A stretch of 56,791 nt of DNA from Lysobacterales bacterium (GCA_036722245.1 DAIMJK010000001.1:1-56791); one strand, 5' to 3'; shown: positions 4,054-48,426, numbered from the stretch's first letter. Numbers and translations are program-made. Notes: generated by a model from the letters alone, not told the origin.

Positions 4054-4099
4054 CGGGAGACTCAGCGAGTCCGGTCCAAAGTCCGAAAATTGCAAGCGA

Positions 4100-5801: not shown

Positions 5802-5830
5802 GACCGTGACACCGGTCTACTTTATAGGCA

Positions 5831-6514: not shown

Positions 6515-6515
6515 A

Positions 6516-7025: not shown

Positions 7026-7029
7026 GAAA

Positions 7030-10663: not shown

Positions 10664-10675
10664 GACAAGGACTCT

Positions 10676-12922: not shown

Positions 12923-12932
12923 GGCGATCTCC

Positions 12933-13592: not shown

Positions 13593-13601
13593 ACTGATTC
13601 C

Positions 13602-14069
13602 TCAGGCGGTCTGAACGTCACGAACGCTGAAATCAACGTCCCTGAGCTGCATTATGGAAGAGCGGATGATTATCTTTCTTGCCTCAACCAGCACTTCACC
13701 GGTCACCGGGTGAAGTATCGGCACTGTGGTTCGCTGGCCGATCAAGCTCTCGAGCTCGGAATACGACTCGACGTAGAGACCATCTGGCAGCGCCACTTCC
13801 ACGCCATCACTGATCACTCGAGCCTGACAAGACAAGCGGCTGTTTGGCTGTGCTCCGGTCAATATGCTCAAGGCGAGCTTTTCTCGCTGCGAGGGCGGGG
13901 TCAGGCACTTCTCTCCGGCGACCACGTAAACGTGGCAAGTCGCGCACAGGCCGCGTCCGCCACACAGCATCTTCACCGGAACCTGGTTGGCCAGCAATGC
14001 ATCCAGTAGCCTGGATTCGGTTGGTAAATCGACTTTGGTTCCGTCAGCTCTAAAGGCAATTGTTTTCAT
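13602..14069 (-). CDS. [2Fe-2S] ferredoxin with a ~55-aa C-terminal extension
   Basis: Cys36-x5-Cys42-x2-Cys45-x35-Cys81 (MLCGGRGLCATCHV ... RLSCQ). The ATG overlaps the upstream stop (ATGA at 14066-14069). Confidence 0.88.
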   Translation of the reverse strand: MKTIAFRADGTKVDLPTESRLLDALLANQVPVKMLCGGRGLCATCHVYVVAGEKCLTPPSQREKLALSILTGAQPNSRLSCQARVISDGVEVALPDGLYVESYSELESLIGQRTTVPILHPVTGEVLVEARKIIIRSSIMQLRDVDFSVRDVQTA

Positions 14070-20288: not shown

Positions 20289-20319
20289 GTTGCCTTCCTC
20301 GTCAGATGTGTATCGGTGG

Positions 20320-22347
20320 TCAACCATGGTCATCGGTCATTTCCCGCGGGTGACCCAGCAAGTATCCCTGCAACAACTCGCACCCCATGTCACGCAAACA
20401 TGCCAACTGTGCTGGCTCCTCGACGCCTTCGGCGGTGACCGACAATCCGAGACGACCGGCCAGATCGACCAGCGCATGAACCATGGTTTGATCGCGACCG
20501 AGCTGGGCGACAAGCTGCACGAACCGCCGATCGATCTTGATTCCCGCGATGGGGAATCGCTGCAGATGGGTCAATGATGAAAAACCCACCCCGAAGTCAT
20601 CCAGAATCAACTTGACCCCCAAATCACACAGGCAATGCAGCCGAGCCAGTGTCATGCTCTCGTCACAGAACAGCGCCGTCTCTGTCAATTCAATACGCAA
20701 AGACTGGATTATTTCGGGGGACTCTTGCCGCAACCGGGCAAGATAAGTGTCCAGGCCGCTGCCGGCCAGCGTGCGTGGTGACACATTCACGCTGATCCAA
20801 TGCTCCCTGCGCTGCTGCCCGACATGCCACTTCCTCAGCTGACCCAGCACTGCGGCGAGCATCCACTCGTCAATCAGCGGGATAGCGCCACCCGCTTCAG
20901 CGACGTCCAGAAATTCCATTGGCTGCAGCAGACCATGAATCGGATGTTGCCAGCGCACCAGAGCCTCATAGCCTGCCGTGCCCAGATTTCCGGCCGCGAA
21001 GATGGGCTGGAGATAACAGCGCAGCTCTTCGTTGGCTACGGCCGCATGCAAGTCGGAGAGAAGCTCGATTCGGCGTTGGGTTTCGTCACGCATGACTGGA
21101 TCGTATGCAACCACCTGACCGAAACCGCGGTCCTTGGCTTGATGCAAGGCGGAGTCTGCCGCTCGAACCAGATCGGTCGCATTGGTCGAACAGTACTCGG
21201 GCGTGACCACACCAATGGAGGCACTCAGCACCAGTCGCGACCCCTCGATTGGAAGGGACGTGGAAAAAATTCGCATGATCCTCCCGACCAGTGCATCGAT
21301 CTCGGCCTGGCCGTTTGAGTAATCAAGCATCACCGCGAACTCATCGGCACCAAACCGGGCGACATAATCGGTTTCCCGAATTGCAACCCGGATCCTCGTT
21401 GCCAGAGTGCGCAAGACACCATCACCAACACGTTCGCCCAACCCATCGTTGATCAAGCGAAATCTATCAATATCCAGCAATAGCAACGCTGGTGCCGAAA
21501 CCGTGGTATCGGACAATCGGTCCTTGAGTTTTCGCAGGAAGCTCACCCTATTTGGCAAGCGAGTGAGCGGATCGAAATACGCAGCCCGACCAAGCTGCCG
21601 CTCCACTCTCTTCTGCGGCCGCATGTCATATGCGCTGACAATCAGATACGTATCACTGCCGAAAGCCGCGATCTCGACGCTAAGCAGAACCGGCATTTGA
21701 TATCCAGAGCGGGTCAGCAGCGCATCTTCCAGCTTCACCGGTCCGAACACATTGTCAGCAAAGAGGGTGCTGAGTCTGTTTGTTCTGAAAATCTGATCAA
21801 AGTGGAGTGATCCGAACTCACCAACGGAATATCCACTATGCTCTTGAAAGCAACGATTCCATCGTATCACTACGCCGCTGGAATTGAATACGCAGAACAT
21901 CGCGGGCAATGCGTCCATGATCGTCTGTGCGAACCGGAGTTCACGCGCAATGCTGCAAGTTCGATCCGCGATCCCAAAACTACCGATGGACACCGGATGT
22001 TGCTCGGAGAGCACTGCCGGCATGGGTCGTACGCGAAGCTCAATATTCAGCGCGCCGTCGGGTCTTGAACTGCTCGCGGCGGAACATTCCAGGCGATGAT
22101 CCAATTTGTACCAGTGGCCCGGGGAGGGACCCCGGCTGGCCTCCGCGAAGACTCGACCCAAGACCACCGACAGCGCCGGATCAAGGGCCGCGATCAGAGT
22201 GTGAAAAGCGTCTGGAGTCTCGACCAGGTCGAACTCGCGCAGCAACCTCGCGTCGGCATACAACACCTGCCCGCTCTCGATCAGGAGCTTCATTTCCGAA
22301 TGCGCCCCGGCGGCAGTGCCGGGAGGCCTTTCGACCACCTGATTCAT
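20320..22347 (-). CDS. PAS-GGDEF-EAL c-di-GMP turnover protein
   Basis: GGDEF-domain block RFGADEFAVML (GADEF variant). EAL blocks GYEALVRW, IELTE, LDDFGVGFSS, KIDRRF, EGVE and QGYL. Start at MNQVVERPP (ATG 22347, GGAGAG upstream) or ATG 22428. The track start 22794 would overlap gvpL and encodes junk. Confidence 0.85.
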   Translation of the reverse strand: MNQVVERPPGTAAGAHSEMKLLIESGQVLYADARLLREFDLVETPDAFHTLIAALDPALSVVLGRVFAEASRGPSPGHWYKLDHRLECSAASSSRPDGALNIELRVRPMPAVLSEQHPVSIGSFGIADRTCSIARELRFAQTIMDALPAMFCVFNSSGVVIRWNRCFQEHSGYSVGEFGSLHFDQIFRTNRLSTLFADNVFGPVKLEDALLTRSGYQMPVLLSVEIAAFGSDTYLIVSAYDMRPQKRVERQLGRAAYFDPLTRLPNRVSFLRKLKDRLSDTTVSAPALLLLDIDRFRLINDGLGERVGDGVLRTLATRIRVAIRETDYVARFGADEFAVMLDYSNGQAEIDALVGRIMRIFSTSLPIEGSRLVLSASIGVVTPEYCSTNATDLVRAADSALHQAKDRGFGQVVAYDPVMRDETQRRIELLSDLHAAVANEELRCYLQPIFAAGNLGTAGYEALVRWQHPIHGLLQPMEFLDVAEAGGAIPLIDEWMLAAVLGQLRKWHVGQQRREHWISVNVSPRTLAGSGLDTYLARLRQESPEIIQSLRIELTETALFCDESMTLARLHCLCDLGVKLILDDFGVGFSSLTHLQRFPIAGIKIDRRFVQLVAQLGRDQTMVHALVDLAGRLGLSVTAEGVEEPAQLACLRDMGCELLQGYLLGHPREMTDDHG

Positions 22348-22550
22348 CAGCTCTCCGCGTGGCTGCGTTTGGACTGTGGCGGCCAATTGGAACGTGCACT
22401 CCGGAGCGATTCCGTGGGCAGGATCCATCGTGCGACCTTTATAGCCGCACAGGCTCCGGCACCGCACTACACCCTTGGTTGTAGCGACCGACTCCAGCGC
22501 GGCTGGGCACCTGTGAGAGAATCGCGCACACTCGGCACGCGAAGGTACCC
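22348..22550. promoter_or_regulatory. Divergent intergenic region between the PAS-GGDEF-EAL/globin operon and gvpL
   Basis: About 200 nt separate two divergently oriented start codons. Contains the 8-nt palindrome CCAATTGG and TGTG-N11-CACA. No promoter consensus could be assigned by eye. Confidence 0.4.
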
Positions 22551-23312
22551 ATGGCCACAAACCCGACCTACTCGGTGCTCGCGTTGATCCCCGCCGACAC
22601 TTCAACACATGACCTGTCGATCCGCGTTGTAGCGATCGGAAGTGGCTTGTGTGCTTGCGTCGAAGACGCAGAGACCGATCGTATCCAGAGGTTTGCCGAC
22701 CTGGCGAAGGCCGACCCGCAGTGGCTTGCCGGCGAGTTGGCGCGTCACCACAGGCTGGTGCTTGCCCTGCATCAGAGCGGCAGCGTTTTCCCAATGCAGT
22801 TCGGGGTCCTCACTTCCGATCTGGCGGCGCTGGGGGATGCCGTGCATGAGCATCACGAAGCGCTGGACGCATACTTCGGGTTGATTGAGGGTTGTGACGA
22901 ATGGGCAGTGAAGTTGCTCGCTGAAGTTGAGCCGTCGGTCGTGCCGTCAACAAGACCCTCCGATGGCACCAGCTACCTGCTTTCGCTACGCGCAGCGAAA
23001 CTGGCCAAAGCAGAACTCACGCGACAGCGGGGGGAGCGTGCGACCGGCGCCTTGGAGCATCTGCAGGGTTTGGCAAGGCACATACGCAACTTGCCAGCCG
23101 GCGAAAGCGAGCGCCTTTTGGGTGGAGCGGCAATGATCTCCAATCACGCTCTGTTGGTGCCACGCAGCGTACTGGGGGAGTTTGAGGCGGCCATCAGCCT
23201 GGCACGTCAGGAGCTGAGTGACACAAGCTTGCGAATGGAAATCACCGGACCCTGGCCCCCCTACTCGTTCCGACCGCGTTTGGACCAGCCGTCCGTGCTG
23301 GAAGAAGCCTGA
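22551..23312 (+). CDS. gvpL: Gas vesicle protein GvpL/GvpF family
   Basis: YSVLALIP...DLSIRVVAIGSGLCACVEDAE...HHRLVLALHQSGSVFPMQFGVLTSD...EWAVKLL has GvpF/L family architecture. GAAGG RBS 6 nt before the ATG. Confidence 0.85.
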   Translation: MATNPTYSVLALIPADTSTHDLSIRVVAIGSGLCACVEDAETDRIQRFADLAKADPQWLAGELARHHRLVLALHQSGSVFPMQFGVLTSDLAALGDAVHEHHEALDAYFGLIEGCDEWAVKLLAEVEPSVVPSTRPSDGTSYLLSLRAAKLAKAELTRQRGERATGALEHLQGLARHIRNLPAGESERLLGGAAMISNHALLVPRSVLGEFEAAISLARQELSDTSLRMEITGPWPPYSFRPRLDQPSVLEEA

Positions 23313-23390
23313 GTCAAAGACGTTTGCCAAAGTACGACTGATCCGGACCTGGCCTGAGCAGAGGGCAAGGGCCATGTCGCGCAGTGTTGC

Positions 23391-25505
23391 TCACGACCGG
23401 GAACGCAGTAGATCCCACGCCTGTAGTGCTGCGGCAAAATCGGCGTTGTTGATGGATTCAACCTGAGATTGTTGGTAGTCGCTCATTGAGCGGCGCATCG
23501 CCGCGAGACTGGCAAGGTCGGTCAGTCCGCGAATATCGGCGCCAGACTTGCCTTCCATCCTGCTTGCCAGATCGGCAATATCCAGGTTGTCCACTGGCCT
23601 GTCGCGAAGCACCGCGGCAAGAATCTCCTGGCGGTCCTGCAAACCAGGAAGTGGGACATGAACGAAGAAGTCGAATCGCCCCGGACGCAGCAGCGCCGGA
23701 TCAACCAACTCCAGGCGATTGGTCGCAGCCATCGCCCAGATCACCGTTCTGCCGCGCAAGCCATCAAGTTCAGTGAGCAGCTGGGCGACCACCCGATCCG
23801 CCACACCACTGTCTCCCGACTGGCCTCTGGCGGGGGCAAGGGAATCGAATTCGTCGAAGAACAAGACACATGGGGCGGCTTGCCTGGCCCGTTCGAAGAG
23901 TTCACGCACGGCGCGTTCAGATTCCCCGACATAGCGAGAGAGCAACTCCGGCCCGGAAACAGAAATGAAGTTTGCTTGCGCTTCCGTCGCCATGGCGCGC
24001 GCCAGCATCGTCTTACCGGTTCCAGGAGGCCCGTGCAGGACGATTCCACGGCAAGCGCGGATGCCATATTTCACAAACAACTCAGGAGCTTGCAAGGGCC
24101 AGAGAATACTCTCTCGCAGGACGGTTTTCACTTCGTGGAGTCCGCCTACGTCGGCCAGTCGGGTGTCCGGCACCTCGACGATCACCTGACGCATGCTCGA
24201 AGGCCGAACCAGAGCGAGCGCTTCGGCAAAGTCCAGTGCTGTCACCACGCAGGCGCCTATCGGCTCACCTCGGCGCAAGCTTCCATACTCGCGTTCGACC
24301 ACGCGCATCGCGGCTTCCTGGCACAGCGCCTTCAGGTCGGCTCCGCTGAATCCGTAGGTCGCATTCGCCAGGCCCTCCAGGTCCACATCCTTGGCCAGAG
24401 GCATACGCTTGGAGTGCACTTCGATGATCGCCAACCGGGCCACCCGGTTGGGCATTCCGAGCGCCACCTCGCGGTCGAACCGCCCTGGCCTGCGTAGCGC
24501 GGGGTCGAGATTCTGGGGCAAATTGGTGGCGGCAATCACGACCACGTCCCCGCGCGAGCCGATCCCGTCCATCAGTGTGAGCAACTGCGCTACAACCCGT
24601 TTCTCCACCTCGCCCTGAACCTGATCCCGGCGCGGCGCGATGGCGTCGATCTCGTCAATGAAGATGATGCTGGGCGCCTGCTTCTGCGCGCGCTCGAACA
24701 ACTCTCGCAGCTTGGCCTCGCTTTCGCCGTAGAACTTCTGAACGATCTCGGGCGCACTCACAGCGAAGAACTGTACACCGGCTTCGCTCGCCACAGCGCG
24801 CGCGATCAGCGTCTTGCCGGTGCCTGGCGGCCCGTACAGCAACACGCCGCGAGGTGGTGCCACGCCAAGCTTTTCGAACAGCTGAGGATAGCGCAGTGGT
24901 ACTTCGACCATCTCTCTCAGGCGTTGAATCTCCCGATCAAGACCGCCAATCTCGTCGTAACTGGTGACCGACTTCCTGCCCTTCCCGGCGTCGTCCAACT
25001 CCACGAACTTGACCAGGGTTTGCGGCCCGACGACAACAGCGCCGTCAGGTCGAACCAGCCTCACGTCGAAGTCCCGCACCGCGCCGCCAGCCAGCGTCAC
25101 GCCAACCATGTTGCCCTGGCGCAGCACCTGTCCATCAAGCCCGCTGGCAATTTCTTCCTGCTGAGCCGCGGACAGGCGCGCCCGATCGATCGGACGCAGC
25201 CACAGTTCTTCCGCGCCAGCACTTTCCACCGTGTGAAGTTCTATCCGATCGCCGATCGCAATTCCCGCATTGCGCCGCGTTTGCGCATCTACCTGCACAA
25301 CTCCAAGTCCACGGCGGTCGGAGAAAACCGGCATGACGCGCGCAAACGCAGCGCCTTCCGGGCCCAGGGCAACCGTGCTGCCGGGCTCCAGCCGGGCCGC
25401 CTTGATCCAAGCCGGATCCACCCGAACGACGCCACGACCGCGGTCCTGGGAACGCGCGTCGATCACCTCCAGCGTCGGCAACGAAGTCCGCTTTGTTCCA
25501 CTCAT
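23391..25505 (-). CDS. CDC48/VCP-type double AAA+ ATPase (N-domain, D1, D2)
   Basis: Two Walker A sites (LLYGPPGTGKTLIARAVA; VLHGPPGTGKTMLARAMA) and two Walker B sites (IIFIDEIDAI; VLFFDEFDSL). The N-terminal segment LEVIDARSQDRGRGVVRVDP is CDC48-N-like. ATG 25505 overlaps the gvpH stop (ATGA). Confidence 0.88.
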   Translation of the reverse strand: MSGTKRTSLPTLEVIDARSQDRGRGVVRVDPAWIKAARLEPGSTVALGPEGAAFARVMPVFSDRRGLGVVQVDAQTRRNAGIAIGDRIELHTVESAGAEELWLRPIDRARLSAAQQEEIASGLDGQVLRQGNMVGVTLAGGAVRDFDVRLVRPDGAVVVGPQTLVKFVELDDAGKGRKSVTSYDEIGGLDREIQRLREMVEVPLRYPQLFEKLGVAPPRGVLLYGPPGTGKTLIARAVASEAGVQFFAVSAPEIVQKFYGESEAKLRELFERAQKQAPSIIFIDEIDAIAPRRDQVQGEVEKRVVAQLLTLMDGIGSRGDVVVIAATNLPQNLDPALRRPGRFDREVALGMPNRVARLAIIEVHSKRMPLAKDVDLEGLANATYGFSGADLKALCQEAAMRVVEREYGSLRRGEPIGACVVTALDFAEALALVRPSSMRQVIVEVPDTRLADVGGLHEVKTVLRESILWPLQAPELFVKYGIRACRGIVLHGPPGTGKTMLARAMATEAQANFISVSGPELLSRYVGESERAVRELFERARQAAPCVLFFDEFDSLAPARGQSGDSGVADRVVAQLLTELDGLRGRTVIWAMAATNRLELVDPALLRPGRFDFFVHVPLPGLQDRQEILAAVLRDRPVDNLDIADLASRMEGKSGADIRGLTDLASLAAMRRSMSDYQQSQVESINNADFAAALQAWDLLRSRS

Positions 25506-25978
25506 TGCGGCGGGCTCTTCGGATTCCCTGCCTTCTTGCCAGCCACCGGCCAACTCAGCGACAACACGCCCTGTCGAAAGCTCTGCTTCACACGACGGTG
25601 GTCCACCGCATGCGGCAATAGCAGCTCGCCATAGAAATGGCGCGTGTCCTGTTTGGAGGAAACAACCAACATGTCGCCATCAACCTCAATGCGCAAGCGC
25701 TCCAGCTCCAGCCGAGGCTCATTGACCAGGACTCCGATGCGAGAGCCGCGTTCGAAGAGCTCCAATTCCAGCAGTTGCCGCAGGGGCCCCGTCTCCTCAC
25801 TCACGCCCCGCAATTTTTCGGCCAGTTCGCGCCATTCTGAAGCCGAACTGCCATCAGCGGCAGCCATACGGACACCACTGCGCTTGCCATCAACGGAATC
25901 GCCATCCGGCGCTTGTACTGTGGCCCCTTCGGCAAGCTTGTCCAGTACGGCCAGCAGGCCCTTCGCCAACCATTCCAC
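25502..25978 (-). CDS. gvpH: Hsp20/alpha-crystallin-domain gas vesicle protein (GvpH-like)
   Basis: LRIEVDGDMLVVSSKQDTRHFYGELLLPHAVDHRRVKQSFRQGVLSLSWP is an ACD-type beta-sandwich. Start assigned to GTG 25978, just after the gvpJ stop with GGAGAGG upstream. The track ATG 26083 would overlap gvpJ by 100 nt. Confidence 0.7.
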   Translation of the reverse strand: MEWLAKGLLAVLDKLAEGATVQAPDGDSVDGKRSGVRMAAADGSSASEWRELAEKLRGVSEETGPLRQLLELELFERGSRIGVLVNEPRLELERLRIEVDGDMLVVSSKQDTRHFYGELLLPHAVDHRRVKQSFRQGVLSLSWPVAGKKAGNPKSPPQ

Positions 25979-25982
25979 CGCG

Positions 25983-26366
25983 CTAGCCTCTCCGCTTCCG
26001 CGTCGCGCGCGTCGGTTCGGCGCTACTCGATCCGCTCTTTGGTACTCCAAAGCGCGACGTGGCGCCTGGAAGAATAGCTCCATCCAACGCCCTCTCGATT
26101 CGCTCCAAGCGTGCGTTCATCTCCTCAGCCTGACTCGCTTCCAGCGCGCGCGGGCCGGAGGGACCCATGAAATGGCTTTCATTGCGCCACCAGTCCATCC
26201 CCATCTCCATCGCCCGGTCGACTGAGCAAATCACCAGTCGAATCTGAATCGTCAACAGTTCAATATCGACCAGATTGATTCGAATATCACCGGAAATGAC
26301 CACACCCTTGTCCAGCACACGTTCCAGCAGATCCGCCAGATTGGTGCTTTGGGTGGAGTGAATCAT
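25983..26366 (-). CDS. gvpJ: Gas vesicle protein GvpJ (GvpA/J family)
   Basis: NLADLLERVLDKGVVISGDIRINLVDIELLTIQIRLVICSVDRAMEMGMDWW. Confidence 0.9.
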   Translation of the reverse strand: MIHSTQSTNLADLLERVLDKGVVISGDIRINLVDIELLTIQIRLVICSVDRAMEMGMDWWRNESHFMGPSGPRALEASQAEEMNARLERIERALDGAILPGATSRFGVPKSGSSSAEPTRATRKRRG

Positions 26367-26399
26367 TGTTCTCGACTCAACCTGCGGCACCGCTTTCTC

Positions 26400-26705
26400 C
26401 TAGAGCTTCCCCAACGGGCCCAGATCGAGCTTGAGATCGCTCTCACTGAGACCAAAAAGTTCACACAGGCGCTTGATTTCCTCGGCCTGGTGCATCAACG
26501 TCGCACCCAGACGTTCTATTTCCACATCGCTCAAGCTGTCGCCCTCCAGGCGTCGCAACGCCTGCCGCTCCAACAGATCATGAACGAGCTTGATCAACGT
26601 GAGCACCAATTGAGCCAAACCGTTGCCAGCCTGCTCAGCATCCAGCGAAACTTTCTTTCGACCCTGGTTGAGCAGCGGCAGCAGGGCACTCTCAATGTTG
26701 TCCAT
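26400..26705 (-). CDS. gvpK: Gas vesicle protein GvpK
   Basis: GLAQLVLTLIKLVHDLLERQALRRLEGDSLSDVEIERLG...DLKLDLGPLGKL. Start at MDNIES (26705). Confidence 0.9.
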   Translation of the reverse strand: MDNIESALLPLLNQGRKKVSLDAEQAGNGLAQLVLTLIKLVHDLLERQALRRLEGDSLSDVEIERLGATLMHQAEEIKRLCELFGLSESDLKLDLGPLGKL

Positions 26706-26910
26706 CGATACTCCGCAGCGAGTGCTTGAGCGCATTTGGCGCACCGTTGGCCCGTTCCACTGACGTCAACAACAGGCTTAGATCAAGAAAAAGCAACTCG
26801 ATGTCGGCAACCGTGATCACCAACATCCCGCGCAGGACCACCCCGGTTTCAATCAGGCGGTCAAGCAGGTCCACCAGATAGACCTGTTCATCGCCGCTAC
26901 CGAGCTTCAT
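26692..26910 (-). CDS. Small GvpA/J-family gas vesicle protein (GvpS/GvpM-like)
   Basis: YLVDLLDRLIETGVVLRGMLVITVADIELLFLDLSLLLTSVERA. The ATG overlaps the gvpG stop (ATGA). Confidence 0.82.
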   Translation of the reverse strand: MKLGSGDEQVYLVDLLDRLIETGVVLRGMLVITVADIELLFLDLSLLLTSVERANGAPNALKHSLRSIDGQH

Positions 26911-27113
26911 CGATGCATCCCTTTGAGCACCTTGAGTCGATCCAGCGACGCTGACTCGAGCAGATCGAATTCCTCCTCCGTCATTCTACCGCTCTCCAAG
27001 GCGGCATGCAGCCCGCGGAGATCCTCCATGACCAGCTTTATGTCACCTTCGATCTGCTGCTGCACGGCAGTGTCGATCTCTCGCACCAAGCCCACCATGA
27101 GCTTTCCAAACAC
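26907..27113 (-). CDS. gvpG: Gas vesicle protein GvpG
   Basis: 68 aa. IKLVMEDLRGLHAALESGRMTEEEFDLLESASLDRL is the typical GvpG E-G-x-I/M-x-EEE-F/Y motif. Confidence 0.85.
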   Translation of the reverse strand: MFGKLMVGLVREIDTAVQQQIEGDIKLVMEDLRGLHAALESGRMTEEEFDLLESASLDRLKVLKGMHR

Positions 27114-27115
27114 GC

Positions 27116-27847
27116 TCAGGTGATCCGCAATTCAGTGAAGGTATAGGGCGCACTGGGACCAGAGAGCTCGAACAAGTGATCGTCACTGAACCAGGAAGCG
27201 AACTTCTCCACCGCATCAGCGAAAACCTCCTCGCAGTCTCTACCCACCAGTAGTGCCAGGGAACACAGACTGCTCTCATTCCGATGGCCCAATTCCCGGT
27301 GGGAGTGTACGTGGGGCTGCAGGGACTGCAGACAGTCGCGCGTGATCTGTTCGCGCTCGTTTTTCAGAAATTGCTCGAAGACCTGGCCCAGATGAATGCG
27401 CTCATCCTGACTCGGCGTGCGACCATCGACAAAGTATGCGTCTCGCAACGCGCCCAGCTCGGGATATCGCTCAACGAACTGTCCAAACAGATTGGCACCC
27501 TGCCAGGAGACGCGCAATACGAACTCTCCGCGCCCCTCAACCAGGCTCAGCTTCTCCGCGAACTCTACAGCGTGCTCGGCCAACAGCCGTTCAATTTCTT
27601 CTGTATCGTCGGCAATCGAACCGAAGGACATCGGCAGCACAACGCCCCGCCCAAAGCATGCGGACATCACCTGCTGAAATTGCGCCAGGGTCTTGCGTCG
27701 AGGCACCAGCTCCTCGCCGTCATACTCACTGACCACCACGGCAAGGTCGGCGTGCGCGACCGAATATACCGGCGCTTCATCGATTCCCCGCAGATCCGCC
27801 TCGATCTGATGATCCGCCTTGCTCACGGCATACATGAAGAAGGGCAT
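27116..27847 (-). CDS. gvpF: Gas vesicle protein GvpF
   Basis: FFMYAVSKADHQ...VYSVAHADLAVVVSEYDG...GVVLPMSFGSIADD...EFVLRVSW is GvpF/L family. Confidence 0.9.
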   Translation of the reverse strand: MPFFMYAVSKADHQIEADLRGIDEAPVYSVAHADLAVVVSEYDGEELVPRRKTLAQFQQVMSACFGRGVVLPMSFGSIADDTEEIERLLAEHAVEFAEKLSLVEGRGEFVLRVSWQGANLFGQFVERYPELGALRDAYFVDGRTPSQDERIHLGQVFEQFLKNEREQITRDCLQSLQPHVHSHRELGHRNESSLCSLALLVGRDCEEVFADAVEKFASWFSDDHLFELSGPSAPYTFTELRIT

Positions 27848-27852
27848 CGATT

Positions 27853-28134
27853 TCAGCCTTCGCCTGTCAGGGTCATGGCCAGCATGTTCAGCTCTGCATC
27901 AAACTCACAGCGGTAACGGGAACGCCCGTAAACGTCCTTGGTTCCGGCCGCATTCGCGATGCTCAGCAACGGATCGCGAACATACGCCTCAATGTCCACC
28001 TGCCAGCCCTCATCGTGGCGCCGAAAGCCCAGCACTCTGCATTCCGAGGCACCCAAGGCTTCCGTCACGACGGATCGGACCGTTTCCGCTATCCGGGTGA
28101 GTGGCGACGCGGCGGCTGCTGAGGTTTGTTTCAT
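27853..28134 (-). CDS. gvpO: Gas vesicle synthesis protein GvpO
   Basis: VVTEALGASECRVLGFRRHDEGWQVDIEAYV...SRYRCEFDAELNMLAM shows the GvpO pattern (DGW-x-V-x-VE ... Y-x-V-x-LD). Confidence 0.8.
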   Translation of the reverse strand: MKQTSAAAASPLTRIAETVRSVVTEALGASECRVLGFRRHDEGWQVDIEAYVRDPLLSIANAAGTKDVYGRSRYRCEFDAELNMLAMTLTGEG

Positions 28135-28186
28135 CGGTGAATCCTGCTCAATGGTTGGGGACTCCGGGAGGCTTTACTGCCCCTTC

Positions 28187-28477
28187 CTAGTACCGGATCG
28201 AGATCGTGCCGCTGGGTGCTGGCGCATCCGCGGGTAGCGGTTCCCGGTTGAGATCACCCAGGCTGTGCAGCTTCTCCGCCTCCTTGTCGATGACCAGCAG
28301 GCGCTTGCGCAACGTATCCAACCTCCCTTCCAGATTGGTAATCTCAACCAGACGTCGCTGCTTTTCAAGCGCCAGGTAGCTCAGTCGCAGATAAATGGAG
28401 TGTGTCGTGGGCCTGAGCCGCCGCGCGCCCAATGTCCGACCCGGTACGGTAGTCTTGATGCGCTTGAATCTGGGCAC
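28187..28477 (-). CDS. Small basic/coiled-coil protein of unknown function within the gvp operon
   Basis: 96-aa ORF 2 nt after the gvpN stop. It occupies the position taken by gvpV in the Serratia-type gene order, as I recall it. No motif I can name. Confidence 0.5.
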   Translation of the reverse strand: MPRFKRIKTTVPGRTLGARRLRPTTHSIYLRLSYLALEKQRRLVEITNLEGRLDTLRKRLLVIDKEAEKLHSLGDLNREPLPADAPAPSGTISIRY

Positions 28478-28479
28478 GG

Positions 28480-29688
28480 TCAGCTCCTCTTGACTTTCTT
28501 GATCGTCGTCGCGCTGGCACCGGTCGGCTCGCCGGGAAGGGCCTTCAACCAGCTCGCGCCGAGCGTCTTGCCAGCGCTGCCCGACCGTCGATTCCGAGAT
28601 ATGGTCGGCGCGGACTCTTCGGTTGTCTCGGAGTACTCAGGAGGACTGTTCGTGTCTGCCGTGTCGTCCGCGGGCGAACCCGAGTCCGGCGCCGTTGCAC
28701 CGCCTTCCGGCTCCGCCACACCAGCCAAGTCCTGCGCAGGATCCGGCTGCGCGTGCTTGGTCGCCGCTGTGAGATCGGTCACATTCAACAGCGTTAGCGC
28801 ATCGGGACCGAGCACGTCCACGCAGACCGCCCGAAAGTAGGGGTCCTCGAAATCGACTGCGCGATCGGCAGTGTTCATTACGCGGGCGATAGTGATCGCC
28901 GCACGAATCGTTGGCTTGACTCTTGCGGTCGACTTCGCACGCAAATCCCGCACGAACGACATGATTCGTCGCGCCGTCTCCATATCTGCGCCGGCCTTGG
29001 CCGAAACGATCTGGGCCTCGGTGTCGGCGTCGTAATGGTCAAGGTAAATCGTGATCACGCGGTCGAGCAGCGCATCTGGCGCGCGATACACGCCAGCATA
29101 CTCTTCCGGATTTGAGGTCAGGATTGCGTTGAATTTCGGATGGACGCGAATATAACTTTCCCGACCGTCACTTGCTTTAGGAAGATTAAGGATGCGCTCT
29201 GAAAATACGCTCAGCAACGGGTTATTTGCCTCCGCGCTGGTTCGGTTAAACTCATCATAAACCAGCATGTTTCCGAAACGACACGCTGTGGTAAGTCGAT
29301 TATCCACCCAAAGATCGTGATGCTCCTCTTCGGTTCGGACCACTGATCGAACGTAATTGTCGACGACCCTCGACATGCGAGTGCCTGAGGGCGATCCGAC
29401 GAGGTCAGCACTGCTGAGCTGGTGATCACCGTGCAGCAAGACGATGGGTCGACCGAGCAAGCTGGCGACGTGAAACGCCAGGGTTGTCTTGCCGGTTCCG
29501 GTAGCTCCGCAGAAATGGACTGGATAGCCCGAGCGGAGATAGTCAAGGGCTCGTTCGGCGATGGAACTGACTGCCGCGGAGATAACGAAACTCTCGCTCG
29601 CCGCCATACTTACCTGGGCGCCATCAAAACTCTCGCTGGCGCCATCGGCACCAGCACCGCCACGCCGACCATCAATGCGCTTGAACAA
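28480..29688 (-). CDS. gvpN: Gas vesicle AAA+ ATPase GvpN (CbbQ/NorQ/GvpN family) with a long acidic C-terminal tail
   Basis: Walker A HFCGATGTGKTTLAFHVA and Walker B MLVYDEFNRT. About 100 aa of D/E/P/T-rich tail ends in KKVKRS. Alternative start at ATG 29607. Confidence 0.9.
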   Translation of the reverse strand: MFKRIDGRRGGAGADGASESFDGAQVSMAASESFVISAAVSSIAERALDYLRSGYPVHFCGATGTGKTTLAFHVASLLGRPIVLLHGDHQLSSADLVGSPSGTRMSRVVDNYVRSVVRTEEEHHDLWVDNRLTTACRFGNMLVYDEFNRTSAEANNPLLSVFSERILNLPKASDGRESYIRVHPKFNAILTSNPEEYAGVYRAPDALLDRVITIYLDHYDADTEAQIVSAKAGADMETARRIMSFVRDLRAKSTARVKPTIRAAITIARVMNTADRAVDFEDPYFRAVCVDVLGPDALTLLNVTDLTAATKHAQPDPAQDLAGVAEPEGGATAPDSGSPADDTADTNSPPEYSETTEESAPTISRNRRSGSAGKTLGASWLKALPGEPTGASATTIKKVKRS

Positions 29689-29703
29689 AATCGACTCCCT
29701 GGC

Positions 29704-30270
29704 TCAGGTGTTTGCCGATGACAGAAAGGTGCTGCCGCGCCTGCGAGCGCGGGTGCCCTGCCCCTCCACGGAAGACTTTTGCTCCGAAGTGCCGGTTGAT
29801 TGCGCCGGTACCGGCTGGGGAGCCCTTGGCGCGCTGCCCGCCGTTCCAGCGAGCGCAACCACGGCCTCCTTGAACGCTCCCGTTCGGAATCGCCTGCTCT
29901 TGGCGAACTGCGTCTGTTCTTTCACCGCGCTGACCGATTCGCTCAACGATTGCCTGAATTCCGCCAGCTGCGAACGCATCGTCCCTGCTCTGGCCGCTGC
30001 CTCATCGCGAAACCGCTGACGCAGCTGTTGTACGGATTGCGTTCGATCATGACTGTGTTGCGTCAGATCCGCGTGCAGCGCAACCTTCGCCCGGGACAAT
30101 CCGTTGACCATCCGCTCACGGTCGTCGGCAAAACGGTCCAGTGTCCGAACGAGGCTTTGGCGTAGTCTACCGACATCCTGCCTTATGCGCGCAAGATCAG
30201 CCCCACGCGAACGCCGAAGTTCATCGATATCCAGAAGCAATTCACTGATATCACCAGGAAATCTTGACAT
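29704..30270 (-). CDS. Alpha-helical R/Q-rich protein in the gvpC position (GvpC-like, tentative)
   Basis: Immediately downstream of gvpA. Recurring xRLRQSL, QLRQRF and EFRQSL helical motifs. Start at MSRFPGD (ATG 30270), since the track start would overlap gvpA. Confidence 0.5.
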   Translation of the reverse strand: MSRFPGDISELLLDIDELRRSRGADLARIRQDVGRLRQSLVRTLDRFADDRERMVNGLSRAKVALHADLTQHSHDRTQSVQQLRQRFRDEAAARAGTMRSQLAEFRQSLSESVSAVKEQTQFAKSRRFRTGAFKEAVVALAGTAGSAPRAPQPVPAQSTGTSEQKSSVEGQGTRARRRGSTFLSSANT

Positions 30271-30293
30271 CACCAATCCCCCAAGGTCACGCG

Positions 30294-30326
30294 AAAAAGC
30301 AGCGCGCTGGCGGGCAGCGCGCCGCC
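30294..30326 (-). terminator. Rho-independent terminator/attenuator between gvpA and the next gene
   Basis: On the minus strand, 10 nt after the gvpA TAA: GCGCGCTG-CCCGC-CAGCGCGC (8 perfect GC-rich bp, 5-nt loop) followed by TGCTTTTTC. Confidence 0.65.
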
Positions 30327-30331
30327 GCCGC

Positions 30332-30550
30332 TTATGCCGGCTGAGCCGCACTCGCGGTCAGGCCGATAGCTTCCGCGTACTTCAGGTACGTTTCGACCGA
30401 GGCAATGACGATGCGCGCTTCGATGGAGAGCAACTCAATTCCAACCAGCGACACCTTGACAAATGCATCAATAACGATGCCCTTGTCAAGCACGCGGTCA
30501 ACGACTTCGGCCAAGCTTGATGAATCGGTGGACTTTTGAACCTGTGCCAT
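30332..30550 (-). CDS. gvpA: Major gas vesicle structural protein GvpA
   Basis: [54 protein letters not shown] is the near-canonical GvpA core. GGAGA RBS 7 nt upstream of the ATG. Confidence 0.97.
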
Positions 30551-30610
30551 GACTTATCTCCAGCTATTGATATCAGAAACTGATGCAGAAGCTCGGCCCC
30601 TGCGCGACTT

Positions 30611-30650
30611 GGTCGGGGTAGCCCGGCAAGGCGCACACCTTCCCCCGACC
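30611..30650. repeat. Inverted repeat (8-bp GC arms, 24-nt loop with a nested AAGG/CCTT stem) in the gvpA upstream region
   Basis: GGTCGGGG (30611-30618) pairs with CCCCGACC (30643-30650). Located between the kinase stop (30679) and the gvpA ATG (30550). Confidence 0.5.
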
Positions 30651-30678
30651 CTGATCGGATGGTAGCGAGTCCGGGCCG

Positions 30679-32349
30679 TCAAGAAACTACACCTTGAGTT
30701 GTAGTTGGAGATGATTGCCGCCCGATTGCCTCAACAAGTGCGCGCAAGGCAGCTGGACTTACCGGCTTGTAAAGCAAGCCGACGTGTCGTCTTCTAGCCC
30801 TGTCGGCGAGTATTGGCGAACGCTCGGCTGTCAGTAGATAGATCGGCGGTACCTCGTGCCACAGATTACGGAGAACATCCACAAGGTCCAGACCCGTGCT
30901 GGCATCGTCAAGGTGGTAGTCGATGAGTACCAGATCAGGGACGCGAGTCATCGCTGAGGTGGTCGCGGACTCAATGGTCTGGACGTTCTCGCAACTAACC
31001 CCCCAGTGCTCAAGCAACGCCGCTAGCGCTTTGCCGATGTCCGGGTCGTCATCCACGCTGAGTACATGCAAGCTGCCGGCAACGCGATGGGTCGGCGGCG
31101 CGGCAGCCTCTGGGCGCAGCGCCGGATCGCTGCTCGGGTGGATTAGCCTCGCGTTGACCGTGAAGATGCTGCCCGCGCCCAGCCTTGACGCCACGCCGAC
31201 TTCGTGCCCGAGCAGATCCGACAAGCGCTTGACGATTGCCAGCCCCAGACCCAAACCTGTCTTGCCGGGCGTGGTGGACCCGCCCAATTGGTGAAAGTCC
31301 CGAAATATGTCATCAAAACTGCTAGCCGCGATCCCGCGGCCAGTGTCACAGACCAGGATCTGTGCGATCCCAGCTCTGCGCCTGGCGCCGATCAACACGC
31401 CACCGCGCCGGGTGTAGCGTATCGCGTTGGAGAGCAGGTTGAGCAGGATGCGTCGCAGCAGACGCGCATCACTATGAATGACCAGCGTCGACGGACACGC
31501 TCGCAAACGGATGCCACGGCGCTGCGCCAGCGGCTGCAGGTGCGCGACGAGATTCGCAAACAGCTCGCCCAGCGGCACCTTGCCCATCTGCAAGGCAATC
31601 GGCGATCCGTCCAGACGCGCGAAATCGACGATCTCCTCGGCCAAATACTCGGTTCCACGCAGGGCCTCACCCAGACTGGCAGCGAGGGCGCGCGCGCGCT
31701 CCGGGATATCCTCCGCCTCTTCCAACGCGGAAGCCAGCAGTCTGGCCGCGCTGAGTGGTTGCATGAGATCGTGACCGGCGGATGCGAAGAACCTCGAGCG
31801 GGCAATGAGTTCTAGTTCACTGGCGAGGCGAACTTGCCTCAGCTCGTCGTTCCTGCTTGCGCCGTCCGTGATGGATGGCGCGGCAACGGTCGCTGCGAGG
31901 GTTTGCCGGAGCCTTGTTGGCGTGCCGAGACGGTCCATCGCTACCAGGACGACAGTCTCTGTAATGAAGCGGGCATGCAGGTCCAGTCGTTCTCCGTTCG
32001 CCAGGCCGTAGCCCGAGACCAACAAGGGGACGGGGCGGGCTTGCGCCATCCATTGCCGGATCCGGCGCAGCAGACTCAGCGCACCGCTCCGAACCATGGC
32101 TCGAATCTCCCGCCGGAATGAAATCCTTCCACCCTTGTAGTCCACGGGATCGCGCGCCGTACGGAGCATGATGGCGCAAATCTGGTTTACCAACAGTCGA
32201 CCGGCTGCACGATCGATGATCACCATCGGCGATGCGGAATGCTGAAATGCCGCGTCGAGCGCACAGGCAAGGCAGTCGCCGCGCAGAGCTGGCAGCGTCA
32301 ACTGCCCGGCGCTTGTGGTCGGTTCCGCCGTGACGCACAGCCTAGCCAT
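30679..32349 (-). CDS. Hybrid sensor histidine kinase (cytoplasmic PAS-like N-terminus, HisKA, HATPase, receiver)
   Basis: H-box FFASAGHDLMQPLSAA; DTGRGIA; GLGLGLAIVKRL; receiver VLSVDDDPDIGKAL...DLVLIDYHLDD. Its ATG overlaps the upstream RR stop by 8 nt. Confidence 0.88.
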   Translation of the reverse strand: MARLCVTAEPTTSAGQLTLPALRGDCLACALDAAFQHSASPMVIIDRAAGRLLVNQICAIMLRTARDPVDYKGGRISFRREIRAMVRSGALSLLRRIRQWMAQARPVPLLVSGYGLANGERLDLHARFITETVVLVAMDRLGTPTRLRQTLAATVAAPSITDGASRNDELRQVRLASELELIARSRFFASAGHDLMQPLSAARLLASALEEAEDIPERARALAASLGEALRGTEYLAEEIVDFARLDGSPIALQMGKVPLGELFANLVAHLQPLAQRRGIRLRACPSTLVIHSDARLLRRILLNLLSNAIRYTRRGGVLIGARRRAGIAQILVCDTGRGIAASSFDDIFRDFHQLGGSTTPGKTGLGLGLAIVKRLSDLLGHEVGVASRLGAGSIFTVNARLIHPSSDPALRPEAAAPPTHRVAGSLHVLSVDDDPDIGKALAALLEHWGVSCENVQTIESATTSAMTRVPDLVLIDYHLDDASTGLDLVDVLRNLWHEVPPIYLLTAERSPILADRARRRHVGLLYKPVSPAALRALVEAIGRQSSPTTTQGVVS

Positions 32350-33001
32350 CTTGACTGTTGATCCGGTCGTGATCGATCGCCAGGCTGCGCATGAGCAGGG
32401 CCACCTGGACCCGGTTGCGAACAGCGAGACAGCGGAATACCGACGCCATGTGAACCTTGACGGTGGATTCGGCGATGCCCAGTTCGTAAGCGATTTGCTT
32501 GTTCAGCAAACCACCGGCAAGCAAGGTCGCGATACGGTATTGCTGCGGCGTGAGTCTGGCGACCTTGATGCCTGCCTCCCTTTCGTCCGCTGAAATCTCG
32601 GGAACACAAGCGTGCAAGGCACTGGGCGCCCAGATTCCGCCGTCGAGTACATGGCGTAAGGCTGCCTGCATGACCTCTCGCGCCGCAGACTTCGGAACGA
32701 ATGCTGCCGCGCCATGGCCGAGCGCGCGCTCGGCGATGGTGCGATCCTCCAGACCCGACACCACCACCACGGGCAAGGTCGGATACTTGTGCTTGACCAG
32801 CGCGAGGGTCGAGAAGCCCCCCGCGCCTGGAATATTCAGATCAAGCAGCAACATATCCAAGCCGACCGAGAGTTTCAGTTGATCAAGCAGTTGATCGGCG
32901 CTGTCGGCCTCCATGACCTCGAGGGCGGGCAGCACCCGCGACAGCAGCAGACGCATCGCGTCTCGGACCAGAGGGTGGTCGTCAGCAATCAGGACGCGCA
33001 T
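32342..33001 (-). CDS. NarL/FixJ (LuxR-HTH) family response regulator
   Basis: Receiver MRVLIADDHPLVRD...MLLLDLNIPG. HTH LTPQQYRIATLLAGGLLNKQIAYELGIAESTVKVHMASVFRCL. Confidence 0.9.
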   Translation of the reverse strand: MRVLIADDHPLVRDAMRLLLSRVLPALEVMEADSADQLLDQLKLSVGLDMLLLDLNIPGAGGFSTLALVKHKYPTLPVVVVSGLEDRTIAERALGHGAAAFVPKSAAREVMQAALRHVLDGGIWAPSALHACVPEISADEREAGIKVARLTPQQYRIATLLAGGLLNKQIAYELGIAESTVKVHMASVFRCLAVRNRVQVALLMRSLAIDHDRINSQDG

Positions 33002-33011
33002 CTGAACTCAC

Positions 33012-33749
33012 TCAACGAATCGGTTGCAGGGCGGGGACGGAGACAGATTCGCCGGCTGGATCGGTGGCGTTACCGGGACCGTTGACCAGATGGCTGAATG
33101 GGCACCTGGCCGTGGAGCGTTCCCTCGGGAGTTGCCGCGCACTCAAGCTGTCGTCGAACCGTTCCGAACCCGCCGTGTTGAGCTCAACCCAGTCCCGTAG
33201 CCCGCCGAACACCGCGATCGCGCCGGCGCAGGCTTCCATGGGCGCGGTGACGACGTTGTCAAAACGGCCTATGAAGCGACGCCAGCGCACGCCATTCTGG
33301 TTTCCGTAACCTCCGAAGTAACGCGATGCCAACGCGCTTTCGGCAGGCAGGCTCTTGCGAAGGGCGCGAGTGATCAATGTCCCGCCCAGCATCGAGCCTT
33401 CGAGCACATAGACCGCTCCGGCGCGGCGCGCCTCGTTGTGCAGCAAGGGCAGTGCCAAACAGCGCTCTACGGAATCGGGCCGGACCCCCAGAGCAACGAG
33501 ATCCGCTTGCAACATCGCCGTGTGATCGCGGCCTGGTTGGACGGAATCGAACCGATGCGCTCCGAGCAGAGCGTGCAAGGGCGCCATGTAGCCATAGAAC
33601 AACCGCAGCACCAGTTCATACTCCGACCGAGTCAGGTCTTCGGCAACCAGCCGAGAAAGCAACGGGAGACGCTCAAGCGCCTGATGTGCGTGCCGGGTGT
33701 GCTCCCTGAGGGTGCTGATTGCAGACTGGACTTGTATTGCGATGGACAT
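33012..33749 (-). CDS. Heme oxygenase (biliverdin-producing, BphO/HmuO-like) with a ~45-aa C-terminal extension
   Basis: LREHTRHAHQALE (proximal-His helix), RSEYELVLRLFYGYMAPLH and AVYVLEGSMLGG (conserved distal-helix motif). Start at MSIAIQ (ATG 33749, AAGGA RBS). The track start 33914 adds 55 unlikely residues. Confidence 0.82.
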   Translation of the reverse strand: MSIAIQVQSAISTLREHTRHAHQALERLPLLSRLVAEDLTRSEYELVLRLFYGYMAPLHALLGAHRFDSVQPGRDHTAMLQADLVALGVRPDSVERCLALPLLHNEARRAGAVYVLEGSMLGGTLITRALRKSLPAESALASRYFGGYGNQNGVRWRRFIGRFDNVVTAPMEACAGAIAVFGGLRDWVELNTAGSERFDDSLSARQLPRERSTARCPFSHLVNGPGNATDPAGESVSVPALQPIR

Positions 33750-48038: not shown

Positions 48039-48063
48039 GGCTGTGGCCTGCATGCGATTGAGA

Positions 48064-48426
48064 TCAACCTGCGTACGTGCGCAGCGCGTCAAGAATCTGG
48101 GATGCATCGTAGGGCTTGCCGATCAAGGCCTTCGCGCCTTGCATCTTGGCCCAGAGGTGATCCGCTTTCTGGTTCTTGCTGGAGACGAAAACGACCGGAA
48201 TGGCCTTCGTATCCGCGTTCGCCTGCAACTGCCGACAGGCCTCGAAACCGTCCATGTCCGGCATGATGATGTCGCACAGGATCAGACCGGGCTTCTCGCT
48301 GAGCGCCTTGGCGACGGCCTCATTGCCATTGGACGCGGTGACTGCCTGCCATCCCGCCCCGGTCAGGATGTTCAACAGGTTGGCCAGCTCTGTGGGTGAA
48401 TCGTCGACAATGAGTGCTTTGGGCAT
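48064..48426 (-). CDS. CheY-like single-domain response regulator
   Basis: MPKALIVDDSPTELANL...LILCDIIMPDMDGFEACRQL...VVFVSSK...LIGKPY. Start at ATG 48426. Confidence 0.88.
   Translation of the reverse strand: MPKALIVDDSPTELANLLNILTGAGWQAVTASNGNEAVAKALSEKPGLILCDIIMPDMDGFEACRQLQANADTKAIPVVFVSSKNQKADHLWAKMQGAKALIGKPYDASQILDALRTYAG

Follow-up and report, generated by a model that had tools for sequence, protein, structure and literature searches.

Ferredoxin-dependent bilin reductases (FDBRs) of the pre-PcyA type are encoded in nonphotosynthetic bacteria in clusters that also comprise a heme oxygenase, an Fe-S protein, two V4R proteins, and bilin-binding globins associated with bilin biosynthesis (BBAGs) (Rockwell, Martin & Lagarias 2023, PMC10151467). 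Clusters of the pre-1 lineage, exemplified by POZ53545-POZ53557 of Methylovulum psychrotolerans, may include members that lie apart from the rest; cyanobacteria are believed to have taken phycocyanobilin synthesis and bilin-binding globins from BBAG/pre-PcyA clusters, and the function of BBAG clusters in nonphotosynthetic bacteria is explicitly given as unknown (PMC10151467). Pre-1 enzymes make 3(E)-phytochromobilin in vitro, as a 2026 follow-up reports (PMC13446030). Here, we analyze a stretch of 56,791 nucleotides (nt) from a Lysobacterales bacterium (GCA_036722245.1, DAIMJK010000001.1:1-56791; the window in what follows), in which an extended pre-1 cluster is physically joined to a complete gas-vesicle (gvp) operon.

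The window resembles the published pre-1 clusters in holding a heme oxygenase, a 2Fe-2S protein, two V4R proteins, a BBAG, and an FDBR with Thr at the position of His88 and Glu at that of Asp105, and also in that its heme oxygenase gene lies distant from the other genes. It differs from them in adding a PAS-GGDEF-EAL protein, a six-domain globin, a giant multi-globin protein, a kinase/regulator pair, and the complete gvp operon; gas vesicles (0 occurrences) and tandem globins go unmentioned in PMC10151467 and PMC13446030. A further relative is the slr0144-slr0152 cluster of Synechocystis, whose Fe-S, V4R, and BBAG core descended from pre-PcyA clusters and which is implicated in photosystem assembly and repair, not in buoyancy (PMC10151467); the same source also places the Ser/Thr kinase SpkG near it. 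The window shares this core and a nearby Ser/Thr kinase gene, whereas slr0144-slr0152 is without FDBR, heme oxygenase, and gvp genes. SpkG is Slr0152.

On the gas-vesicle side, the gvp cluster of Serratia sp. ATCC 39006 has the dedicated regulators gvrA/B/C. Clusters of this type share with the window the gvpA-C-N-F-G-J-K-L core, in which gvpC and gvpG of the window are putative, and the accessory Hsp20 and AAA proteins; unlike Serratia sp. ATCC 39006, however, the window is without a GvrA-type enhancer-binding protein, and its neighboring regulators belong to the bilin cluster. Like bphO-bphP operons, the window has a heme oxygenase of the same family co-transcribed with two-component signaling genes, but no PAS2-GAF-PHY phytochrome module was found among its scanned proteins, and the bilin acceptors here would be globins. 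ApcE, the core-membrane linker of phycobilisomes, combines one phycobiliprotein-type domain with REP linker repeats. A 767-amino-acid (aa) protein of the window is likewise a large multidomain protein containing the phycobiliprotein-type domain; in contrast to ApcE, it consists of six tandem globin-type domains and belongs to an organism without evidence of phycobilisomes.

A first-pass annotation, made from the sequence of the window, knew of no bilin- or globin-linked gvp regulon in a heterotrophic proteobacterium. Our full-text literature search agrees with this, as it found no gvp-bilin link in noncyanobacterial bacteria and no report tying gvp to bilin or BBAG genes. Taken by itself, the gvp half of the locus is ordinary; what is new is the conserved union of a gvp operon with a bilin cluster, and the tandem-globin proteins.

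Results

The window stems from an uncultured stromatolite population, represented by a stromatolite metagenome and by the metagenome-assembled genome (MAG) GCA_964502275.1; no gene usable as a taxonomic marker was seen in the window. The region is 99.9 to 100% identical in two assemblies, with shorter Logan/ENA contigs covering parts of it, and exact look-ups of window proteins returned matches from the same stromatolite population only, again at 99.9 to 100% identity. Gene content was taken from a listing of open reading frames (ORFs) combined with Pfam and NCBIfam scans. On this basis, positions 4593 to 33749 (approximately 30 kb) form one conserved supercluster, in which a gvp operon and an extended pre-1 pre-PcyA/BBAG cluster are physically linked. 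Read 5' to 3' on the minus strand, an array of genes runs from heme oxygenase over a regulator and a kinase and, after a gap of 128 nt, from gvpA through a CDC48-type ATPase. Beyond the plus-strand gvpL/F gene and a spacer of 203 nt follow 14 packed, co-directional minus-strand genes—the bilin array—starting with the PAS-GGDEF-EAL gene, in which neighbors overlap or are separated by gaps of at most 29 nt. The gene content of both parts can be read directly, as can the operon-like packing of the bilin array. The first-pass annotation had placed an FDBR/globin gene opposite gvpL across a divergent spacer of about 200 nt. The spacer itself is there, at 203 nt (22348-22550), but the partner across it is the PAS-GGDEF-EAL gene; the FDBR gene is number 13 of the 14 in the array and lies 16 kb from gvpL, outside the segment to which that annotation had confined the locus.

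All of the published components—heme oxygenase, Fe-S protein, two V4R proteins, BBAG globin, and pre-1 FDBR—were found, and by its predicted gene content the bilin side adds a new and extended example to the published pre-1 pre-PcyA/BBAG clusters. The FDBR (5831-6514, minus strand; PF05996, 2e-11) aligns with Synechocystis PcyA such that Glu76, His88, and Asp105 correspond to Ala56, Thr67, and Glu84. In pre-1 enzymes, PcyA position 76 is not occupied by Glu, position 88 is either Thr or Asn, and position 105 is Glu (PMC13446030). The predicted active site of the FDBR carries this signature, and we base the pre-1 assignment on these residues together with the colinear context of the gene.

The same junction is found in a second, deeply diverged lineage. 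In the genome GCA_964561825.1 (contig CAZLSB010000007.1, to which our loci L097 and L102 belong), which shares a species with locus L003 (the contig is 99.2% identical to L103, the start of Ga0163144_10003904, that is, of L003), the genes follow one another as CDC48-like ATPase, gvpL (reading from the opposite strand), GGDEF-EAL, multi-globin, giant, ferredoxin, V4R, and on to FDBR and flavoprotein. Identities to the window are 58% for the CDC48-like ATPase, 32% for GvpL, 37% (333 bits) for the GGDEF-EAL protein, 28% over 724 aa between the 745-aa multi-globin and the 767-aa protein, 33% over 1271 aa for the giant protein (1251 aa in the relative), 78% for the ferredoxin, 81% for the first V4R protein, 51% for the FDBR, and 50% for the flavoprotein; the spacer between gvpL and the GGDEF-EAL gene measures 347 nt. 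The gvp/bilin junction is hence retained gene for gene, with shared proteins at 28 to 81% identity. A third relative (L101, 54% GC) is closer still, with the V4R protein at 90% and the ferredoxin at 88%; its contig breaks 68 nt before the giant gene, and its first 65 nt encode a C terminus similar to the one found in the 767-aa protein.

Whether relatives conserve the juxtaposition was the test that the first-pass annotation had set for its own proposal, according to which the two halves of a bilin pathway bracket the gvp genes. The junction recurs in GCA_964561825.1; the bracket does not. There, the heme oxygenase, regulator, and kinase genes lie beyond the FDBR gene, approximately 25 kb from the end of the cluster at which gvp lies, and because the position of these three genes differs between the two gvp-linked lineages, the bracket is specific to the lineage of the window. 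In L097 (14731-19824), FDBR and flavoprotein are followed by a compact block that encodes the hybrid kinase, the GerE regulator, the heme oxygenase, a second PAS-GGDEF-EAL paralog, a GAF kinase, and two single REC proteins.

Beyond the junction, eight further contexts of FDBR homologs (34 to 51% identity) share a colinear core made of ferredoxin, V4R, a variable protein, BBAG, V4R, Ser/Thr kinase, an unknown protein, a phosphatase-like protein, and FDBR, often with the giant before it and the flavoprotein after it. As a side observation that goes beyond the published core, the FDBR gene is almost always preceded by the genes for the Ser/Thr kinase, the conserved unknown protein, and the small phosphatase-like protein (4593-9394 in the window, and the counterparts in relatives); in L012, a PP2C gene follows the FDBR gene. 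The SpkG kinase gene next to slr0144-0149 in cyanobacteria is a parallel. That heme oxygenase and FDBR belong to one bilin system, as had been proposed, is supported by six other contexts of the same FDBR cluster with visible flanks, with the heme oxygenase gene directly adjacent in L005, L006, and L014 and a few genes off in L003/L097.

Base composition gives no sign of a recent join. GC content at third codon positions (GC3) is 0.68 in the gvp genes and 0.66 to 0.71 in the flanks, and relative synonymous codon usage correlates at r = 0.98; because both measures match the flanks, the gvp genes of the window are fully ameliorated in composition and no recent insertion. An insertion of gvp had been suggested by L003, where heme oxygenase, regulator, kinase, and GGDEF-EAL genes lie beyond the FDBR gene and no gvp gene is seen. 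We dropped this reading because the upstream part of the relative's contig shows the same junction and the codon usage is not foreign.

A separate case comes from contig L049 (Ga0163154_10000506, 40% GC), where bilin genes are nested within a gvp cluster (1532-16797), flanked by gvpN-gvpA-gvpJ on one strand and by gvpF through gvpK on the other. The nest encodes a heme oxygenase (7505-8113), a PAS2-GAF-PHY phytochrome of 500 aa without output domain (8171-9673), an FDBR of a non-pre-1 lineage (10551-11252, minus strand) with PebA and plastid FDBR as the closest solved structures, a STAS protein, and two SpoIIE phosphatases. L049 is a separate evolutionary event that joined bilin synthesis and a bilin sensor to gvp genes, and it makes a functional coupling of gas vesicles to bilins more credible in general. 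From its predicted genes, it looks like a control of gas vesicles by phytochrome and partner switching; a flanking protein with a type IX secretion system (T9SS) tail hints at Bacteroidota.

Among the three genes upstream of gvpA, the co-transcribed pairing of heme oxygenase with the regulator is conserved in both gvp-linked lineages. The heme oxygenase (33012-33749, minus strand) is matched by PF01126 at 29.8 bits (cut-off, 23), has the proximal His22 and the YVLEGSxLGG helix, and is 30 to 35% identical to the enzymes of the L003, L005, L006, and L014 clusters; its gene is separated from the start of the bilin array by 10.7 kb, which hold the gvp cluster, the kinase, and the regulator. In a metagenome scan based on a heme-oxygenase alignment, a phytochrome adjoins 52 of the 80 most similar heme-oxygenase loci, among which there are one compact pre-1 cluster (L014) and one locus with a gvp cluster (L049); the scan used a single pattern and missed the divergent heme oxygenase of the relative. 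Downstream of the heme oxygenase follows a response regulator with REC and GerE domains in Pfam (NarL/LuxR type; 32342-33001, minus strand), whose ortholog in L003/L097 (45% identity) is again co-transcribed downstream of heme oxygenase. Next comes a hybrid histidine kinase (HisKA-HATPase-REC in Pfam; 30679-32349, minus strand) with an N-terminal sensor region of 180 aa that has no domain match. The kinase had been described as a PAS protein; Pfam shows no PAS domain in its first 185 residues, and the ortholog in L097 (38% identity) has weak PAS matches only. The closest NCBIfam models are ErdR for the regulator (200.6 bits; cut-off, 390) and the NahK/ErcS family for the kinase (326.6 bits; cut-off, 400), and Pfam found no NosP-type (FIST) domain in the neighboring genes; with both scores below the membership cut-offs, what the two proteins share with NahK/ErcS-ErdR is resemblance only.

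These genes are central to the model of the first-pass annotation, in which the splitting of the pathway around gvp is a functional signature and the regulator controls gvpA directly through the spacer at 30551-30678. The ORFs bear out the geometry on which it was built: regulator and kinase stand immediately upstream of gvpA, heme oxygenase, regulator, and kinase are co-oriented, and the stop of the kinase gene lies 128 nt from the start of gvpA. Its coordinates for gvp, heme oxygenase, regulator, kinase, and the two spacers are correct. The conserved pairing of heme oxygenase and regulator also speaks for the model, as does the lack of any dedicated regulator within the gvp cluster in the Pfam and NCBIfam scans. 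Nothing, however, singles out this regulator for gvpA. In the relative, the three genes sit far from gvp, beyond the FDBR gene, and in the 128-nt spacer, no terminator- or promoter-like consensus, no palindrome, and no shared motif was recognized. No terminator-like hairpin was detected between kinase and gvpA (fold z-score of -0.29 against shuffled sequence), a sigma-54 scan around gvpA and gvpL gave as many matches as expected by chance, and a comparison of k-mers shared among spacers gave nothing convincing; no sigma-70-like site was found in the whole 16.5 kb scanned, so that this last scan is uninformative either way. The sole candidate site for a GerE-type regulator lies elsewhere, in the divergent gvpL/GGDEF-EAL spacer, and we consider direct control of gvpA by this regulator to be unlikely.

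This candidate is an imperfect 7-2-7 palindrome, TACACCCTTGGTTGTA, at 22468-22483. The layout is typical of sites of the NarL/GerE family. The gvpL/GGDEF-EAL spacers of both lineages share it in the form TAC(A/C)ACC-AA-GG..(G/T)TA, and no other intergenic site of the window reaches 10 of 14 matches to the consensus, which is near TACCACC-WW-GGTGGTA. Counting L102 (2102-2117) and L097 (18089-18104), the palindrome occurs upstream of GGDEF-EAL genes in three spacers, the third being that between the heme oxygenase gene and the second GGDEF-EAL gene of L097. We treat it as a lead rather than a finding: it could be a site for the GerE-type regulator.

Taking these observations together, we tentatively rank as most likely that the locus is a sensory supercluster based on bilins, with buoyancy as one of several outputs. 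The co-orientation of heme oxygenase, regulator, kinase, and gvpA through the CDC48-like gene, with no terminator-like signal in the 128-nt gap, is in favor of this reading, as is the stromatolite habitat. A serious rival, which we regard as possible, is that the neighborhood is neutral, stemming from an old chance rearrangement or the joint transfer of an island, with gvp and bilin parts functionally separate. Much of what counts for this rival weighs against the sensory supercluster. Most pre-1 clusters are seen without gvp: in the visible flanks of the compact clusters L005 and L014, no gvp gene lies within 10 kb, and none is found in the visible part of L006, L009, L011, and L012, in which the upstream side is cut off. 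Published cluster descriptions never mention gvp. The two lineages do not agree in the position of heme oxygenase, regulator, and kinase, which lie on different sides, and the window is crowded with unrelated signaling genes, so that the kinase and regulator beside gvp may be incidental. The visible gvp part of the relative comprises the last two gvp genes only, and the two lineages share one ancestral arrangement, that is, one event retained twice and not two events. At gvpA, no shared cis-element was found, and the palindrome in the other spacer is weak (BLAST E value of 0.79 for the orthologous pair; p of approximately 0.08 for the third site, computed against a consensus built from the other two). 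Finally, the BBAGs tested so far are photoinactive, which argues against a simple photoswitch (PMC10151467).

Neutrality, on the other hand, does not easily account for a junction that survives, including the divergent gvpL/GGDEF-EAL pair, among proteins at 28 to 58% identity, where chance neighbors are usually scrambled. The full amelioration of the gvp genes also speaks against it, and so does L049, which is unrelated and nests heme oxygenase, FDBR, and phytochrome genes independently in a gvp cluster. We regard a functional coupling of gvp and bilin genes as plausible, although unproven.

The most unusual proteins of the supercluster are encoded directly behind the PAS-GGDEF-EAL gene. The 767-aa protein (18030-20333, minus strand) is composed of six tandem phycobiliprotein/BBAG-like domains of approximately 120 aa, with N- and C-terminal matches to PF00502 (1e-11; 45.5 bits against a cut-off of 22.2). 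It carries CxRD, the chromophore motif of phycobiliproteins (PMC10151467), at residues 101, 223, and 686 and CxRQ at residue 562; four of the six domains have such a CxR(D/Q) motif. Comparison of profiles built from the six segments linked D1, D2, D3, D4, and D6 at probabilities of 52 to 96% (D1 with D2 and D2 with D6, 96%; D1 with D6, 92%; D3 with D6, 90%; D2 with D4, 76%) and D5 weakly, and the BBAG profile is matched by D2 (92%) and by D6 (83%). The earlier label of a hexa-globin is thus essentially right, with five of the six segments mutually homologous at the profile level and the sixth weak. A HMMER search of 1.84 billion representatives returned eight full-length relatives of 717 to 798 aa, in whose alignment K222, R225, D226, and D689 are invariant, and a word-based homolog search with the protein returned itself alone. 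The AlphaFold prediction for the whole protein is unusable (pLDDT of 42); for a model of D6 (pLDDT of 61), all of the top 50 Foldseek matches are phycobiliproteins, the best E value being just 0.027. For such rare proteins, in which six phycobiliprotein-like domains stand in tandem, the literature searched describes no counterpart.

The giant protein encoded next (14066-18028, minus strand; approximately 1320 aa, with the start inferred from the ortholog alignment) has no Pfam match. It contains at least two Cys-less phycobiliprotein/BBAG-like domains (residues ~580 to 720 and ~830 to 960), found with hhalign when a three-sequence profile of the giant was compared with the domains of the 767-aa protein (probabilities of 95 to 96%; P values of 4e-8 and 1.4e-9); the BBAG profile had given nothing against the large proteins until family profiles were built. 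Orthologs are 33% (L102, over 1271 aa) and 46% (L101) identical, and sizes range from 1250 to 1340 aa, with 1881 aa in L012. In several pre-1 clusters, the giant gene precedes the ferredoxin gene (L102, 6230-9985; L101, 69-4022; L009, 1-3822).

Since the genes for the multi-globin and giant proteins start right beside gvpL in both lineages, one might ask whether their products are gas-vesicle components—for instance, a pigmented coat or scaffold for shading or light harvesting at the surface of the vesicle—rather than signaling proteins. The two proteins together have at least eight phycobiliprotein-like domains, which is excessive for a sensor, and the gvp cluster is without a recognizable member of the GvpC family. 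For neither protein, however, was similarity to any Gvp family found, the giant also occurs in clusters without visible gvp (L009 and L012), and the co-transcribed genes are overwhelmingly of the signaling type. We therefore regard such a structural role as highly improbable.

The other genes of the bilin array all lie on the minus strand. Its first product, the PAS-GGDEF-EAL protein (20320-22347; EAL, 1.3e-59; GGDEF, 5e-36; PAS weak), has a degenerate GGDEF site (GADEF) together with intact EAL, DDFGVGFSS, KID, EGVE, and QGY motifs, and for this reason it is most likely a cyclic di-GMP (c-di-GMP) phosphodiesterase, as judged from these motifs. The 2Fe-2S ferredoxin (13602-14069; PF00111, 2e-11) and the first V4R protein (12933-13592; PF02830, 1.6e-17; 61 to 72% identity outside the relatives named above) are followed by a 760-aa coiled-coil protein (10676-12958) that is rich in Glu, Leu, and Ala, heptad-like, and without Pfam match. 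The slot between V4R and BBAG genes is variable, being filled in relatives by proteins that measure 188 to 1125 aa and show hardly any sequence similarity. The single-domain BBAG-type globin (203 aa; 10052-10663; PF00502, 4.9e-9; orthologs at 35 to 67% identity) shows xPRD in the alignment where CxRD is expected. A second V4R-type protein (9363-10052) stays below the cut-off (E value of 0.002); its orthologs are 34 to 75% identical, and that of L012 carries PF02830. A search of a plasmid collection with the V4R protein returned Acaryochloris copies only.

Toward its end, the array encodes a Ser/Thr protein kinase with a long C-terminal region (7658-9394; Pkinase, 4.5e-36), which is kept in the clusters of all relatives, and a conserved protein without Pfam or NCBIfam match (7030-7704; orthologs at 27 to 39% identity in L003, L005, L006, L009, L011, and L014). 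A small phosphatase-like protein beside the FDBR (6516-7025) is recognized by a DSPc E value of 0.048 only; it has orthologs in L003, L005, L006, L009, and L011, and a weak DSPc mark recurs in L003 and L005. The last gene encodes a ferredoxin-reductase-like flavoprotein of the Pyr_redox_2 type (4593-5801; PF07992, 2e-46), presumed to be the electron source for the ferredoxin, and orthologs follow the FDBR in L003/L097 and in L006 (40% identity).

As had been reported from the first inspection, a complete gvp cluster occupies 22551-30550, and Pfam and NCBIfam matches confirm it, with gvpA, gvpN, gvpF/L, gvpJ, and gvpK all present. The operon starts on the minus strand with gvpA, which encodes the major shell protein (30332-30550; PF00741, 9e-17; NF006874, 132.6 bits against a cut-off of 100). 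Between 25502 and 30270 on the same strand, the two scans place genes for a GvpC-like amphipathic protein, gvpN (TIGR02640, 315.4 bits against a cut-off of 266.8), two small unknowns, gvpF, gvpG, a gvpJ/M-like gene, gvpK, gvpJ, and an Hsp20 gene; the gvpG match is weak (26.3 bits; cut-off, 30.6). The GvpC-like gene, which follows gvpA, encodes apolipoprotein-like amphipathic repeats only and has no recognizable GvpC family match. The last gene of the operon encodes a CDC48-type double AAA+ ATPase (23391-25505, minus strand; CDC48_N and two AAA domains; TIGR01243, 3e-230), whose start was adopted from the called gene in L001; on the gvp side, no other protein is as well conserved between the two lineages. 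The end of the operon (23391-25978, minus strand) thus holds an Hsp20-family gene and this ATPase gene, besides gvpN in the operon. The gvpL/F-family gene (22551-23312; PF06386, 3e-35) is the sole gvp gene on the plus strand. A scan of a genome collection with GvpN returned one Phycisphaeraceae MAG, which offered no useful context.

Outside the supercluster, almost all genes in the right-hand 20 kb of the window (33911-55244) are signaling genes, among them single REC proteins, a REC-EAL protein, an Hpt protein, a VUPS-GGDEF protein, a CheA-like kinase of 1223 aa, a methyl-accepting chemotaxis protein (MCP), and another three hybrid kinases. In their midst lies the gene for a putative urea-binding protein (46947-48107).

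Discussion

If the locus is indeed a sensory supercluster with buoyancy among its outputs, family assignments suggest how it might work. Heme oxygenase would make biliverdin, and the flavoprotein would reduce the 2Fe-2S ferredoxin, which would pass electrons to both heme oxygenase and FDBR. The pre-1 FDBR would then reduce biliverdin to a bilin of the phytochromobilin type, which may be loaded onto the BBAG globin as well as onto those domains of the six-domain protein that bear CxRD. Through their state, these bilin proteins could report light or, alternatively, the supply of oxygen and heme; oxygen is a conceivable input because heme oxygenase needs O2. The signal might be relayed by the V4R proteins, by the pair of Ser/Thr kinase and phosphatase-like protein, by the PAS-EAL phosphodiesterase through c-di-GMP, and by the kinase/GerE-regulator pair, and the outputs would include gas-vesicle formation, with which a cell could adjust its height in the mat. 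Control would most likely be exerted at the divergent gvpL/GGDEF-EAL spacer, and read-through from the heme oxygenase, regulator, and kinase genes into gvpA may contribute.

It is tempting to go one step further and to speculate that setting buoyancy is the function of the BBAG/pre-PcyA clusters, which are nonphotosynthetic forerunners of phycobiliproteins, at least in their extended form, with the bilin-loaded globin arrays (six domains in one protein and at least two in the giant) serving as a light or oxygen gauge that switches gas vesicles via c-di-GMP and a phosphorelay. This broader claim we consider doubtful. Were it true, it would amount to a globin-based photo- or aero-buoyancy in mat-dwelling bacteria that does without a phytochrome.

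In practical terms, the conserved link to gvp suggests flotation as a scorable readout for the function of BBAG clusters, and the gene set is well defined—heme oxygenase, FDBR, ferredoxin, reductase, globins, EAL enzyme, kinase, regulator, and gvp—so that it could be rebuilt in Escherichia coli. For the biology of gas vesicles, the cluster offers a candidate sensory input besides the known quorum, oxygen, and cyanobacterial light responses.

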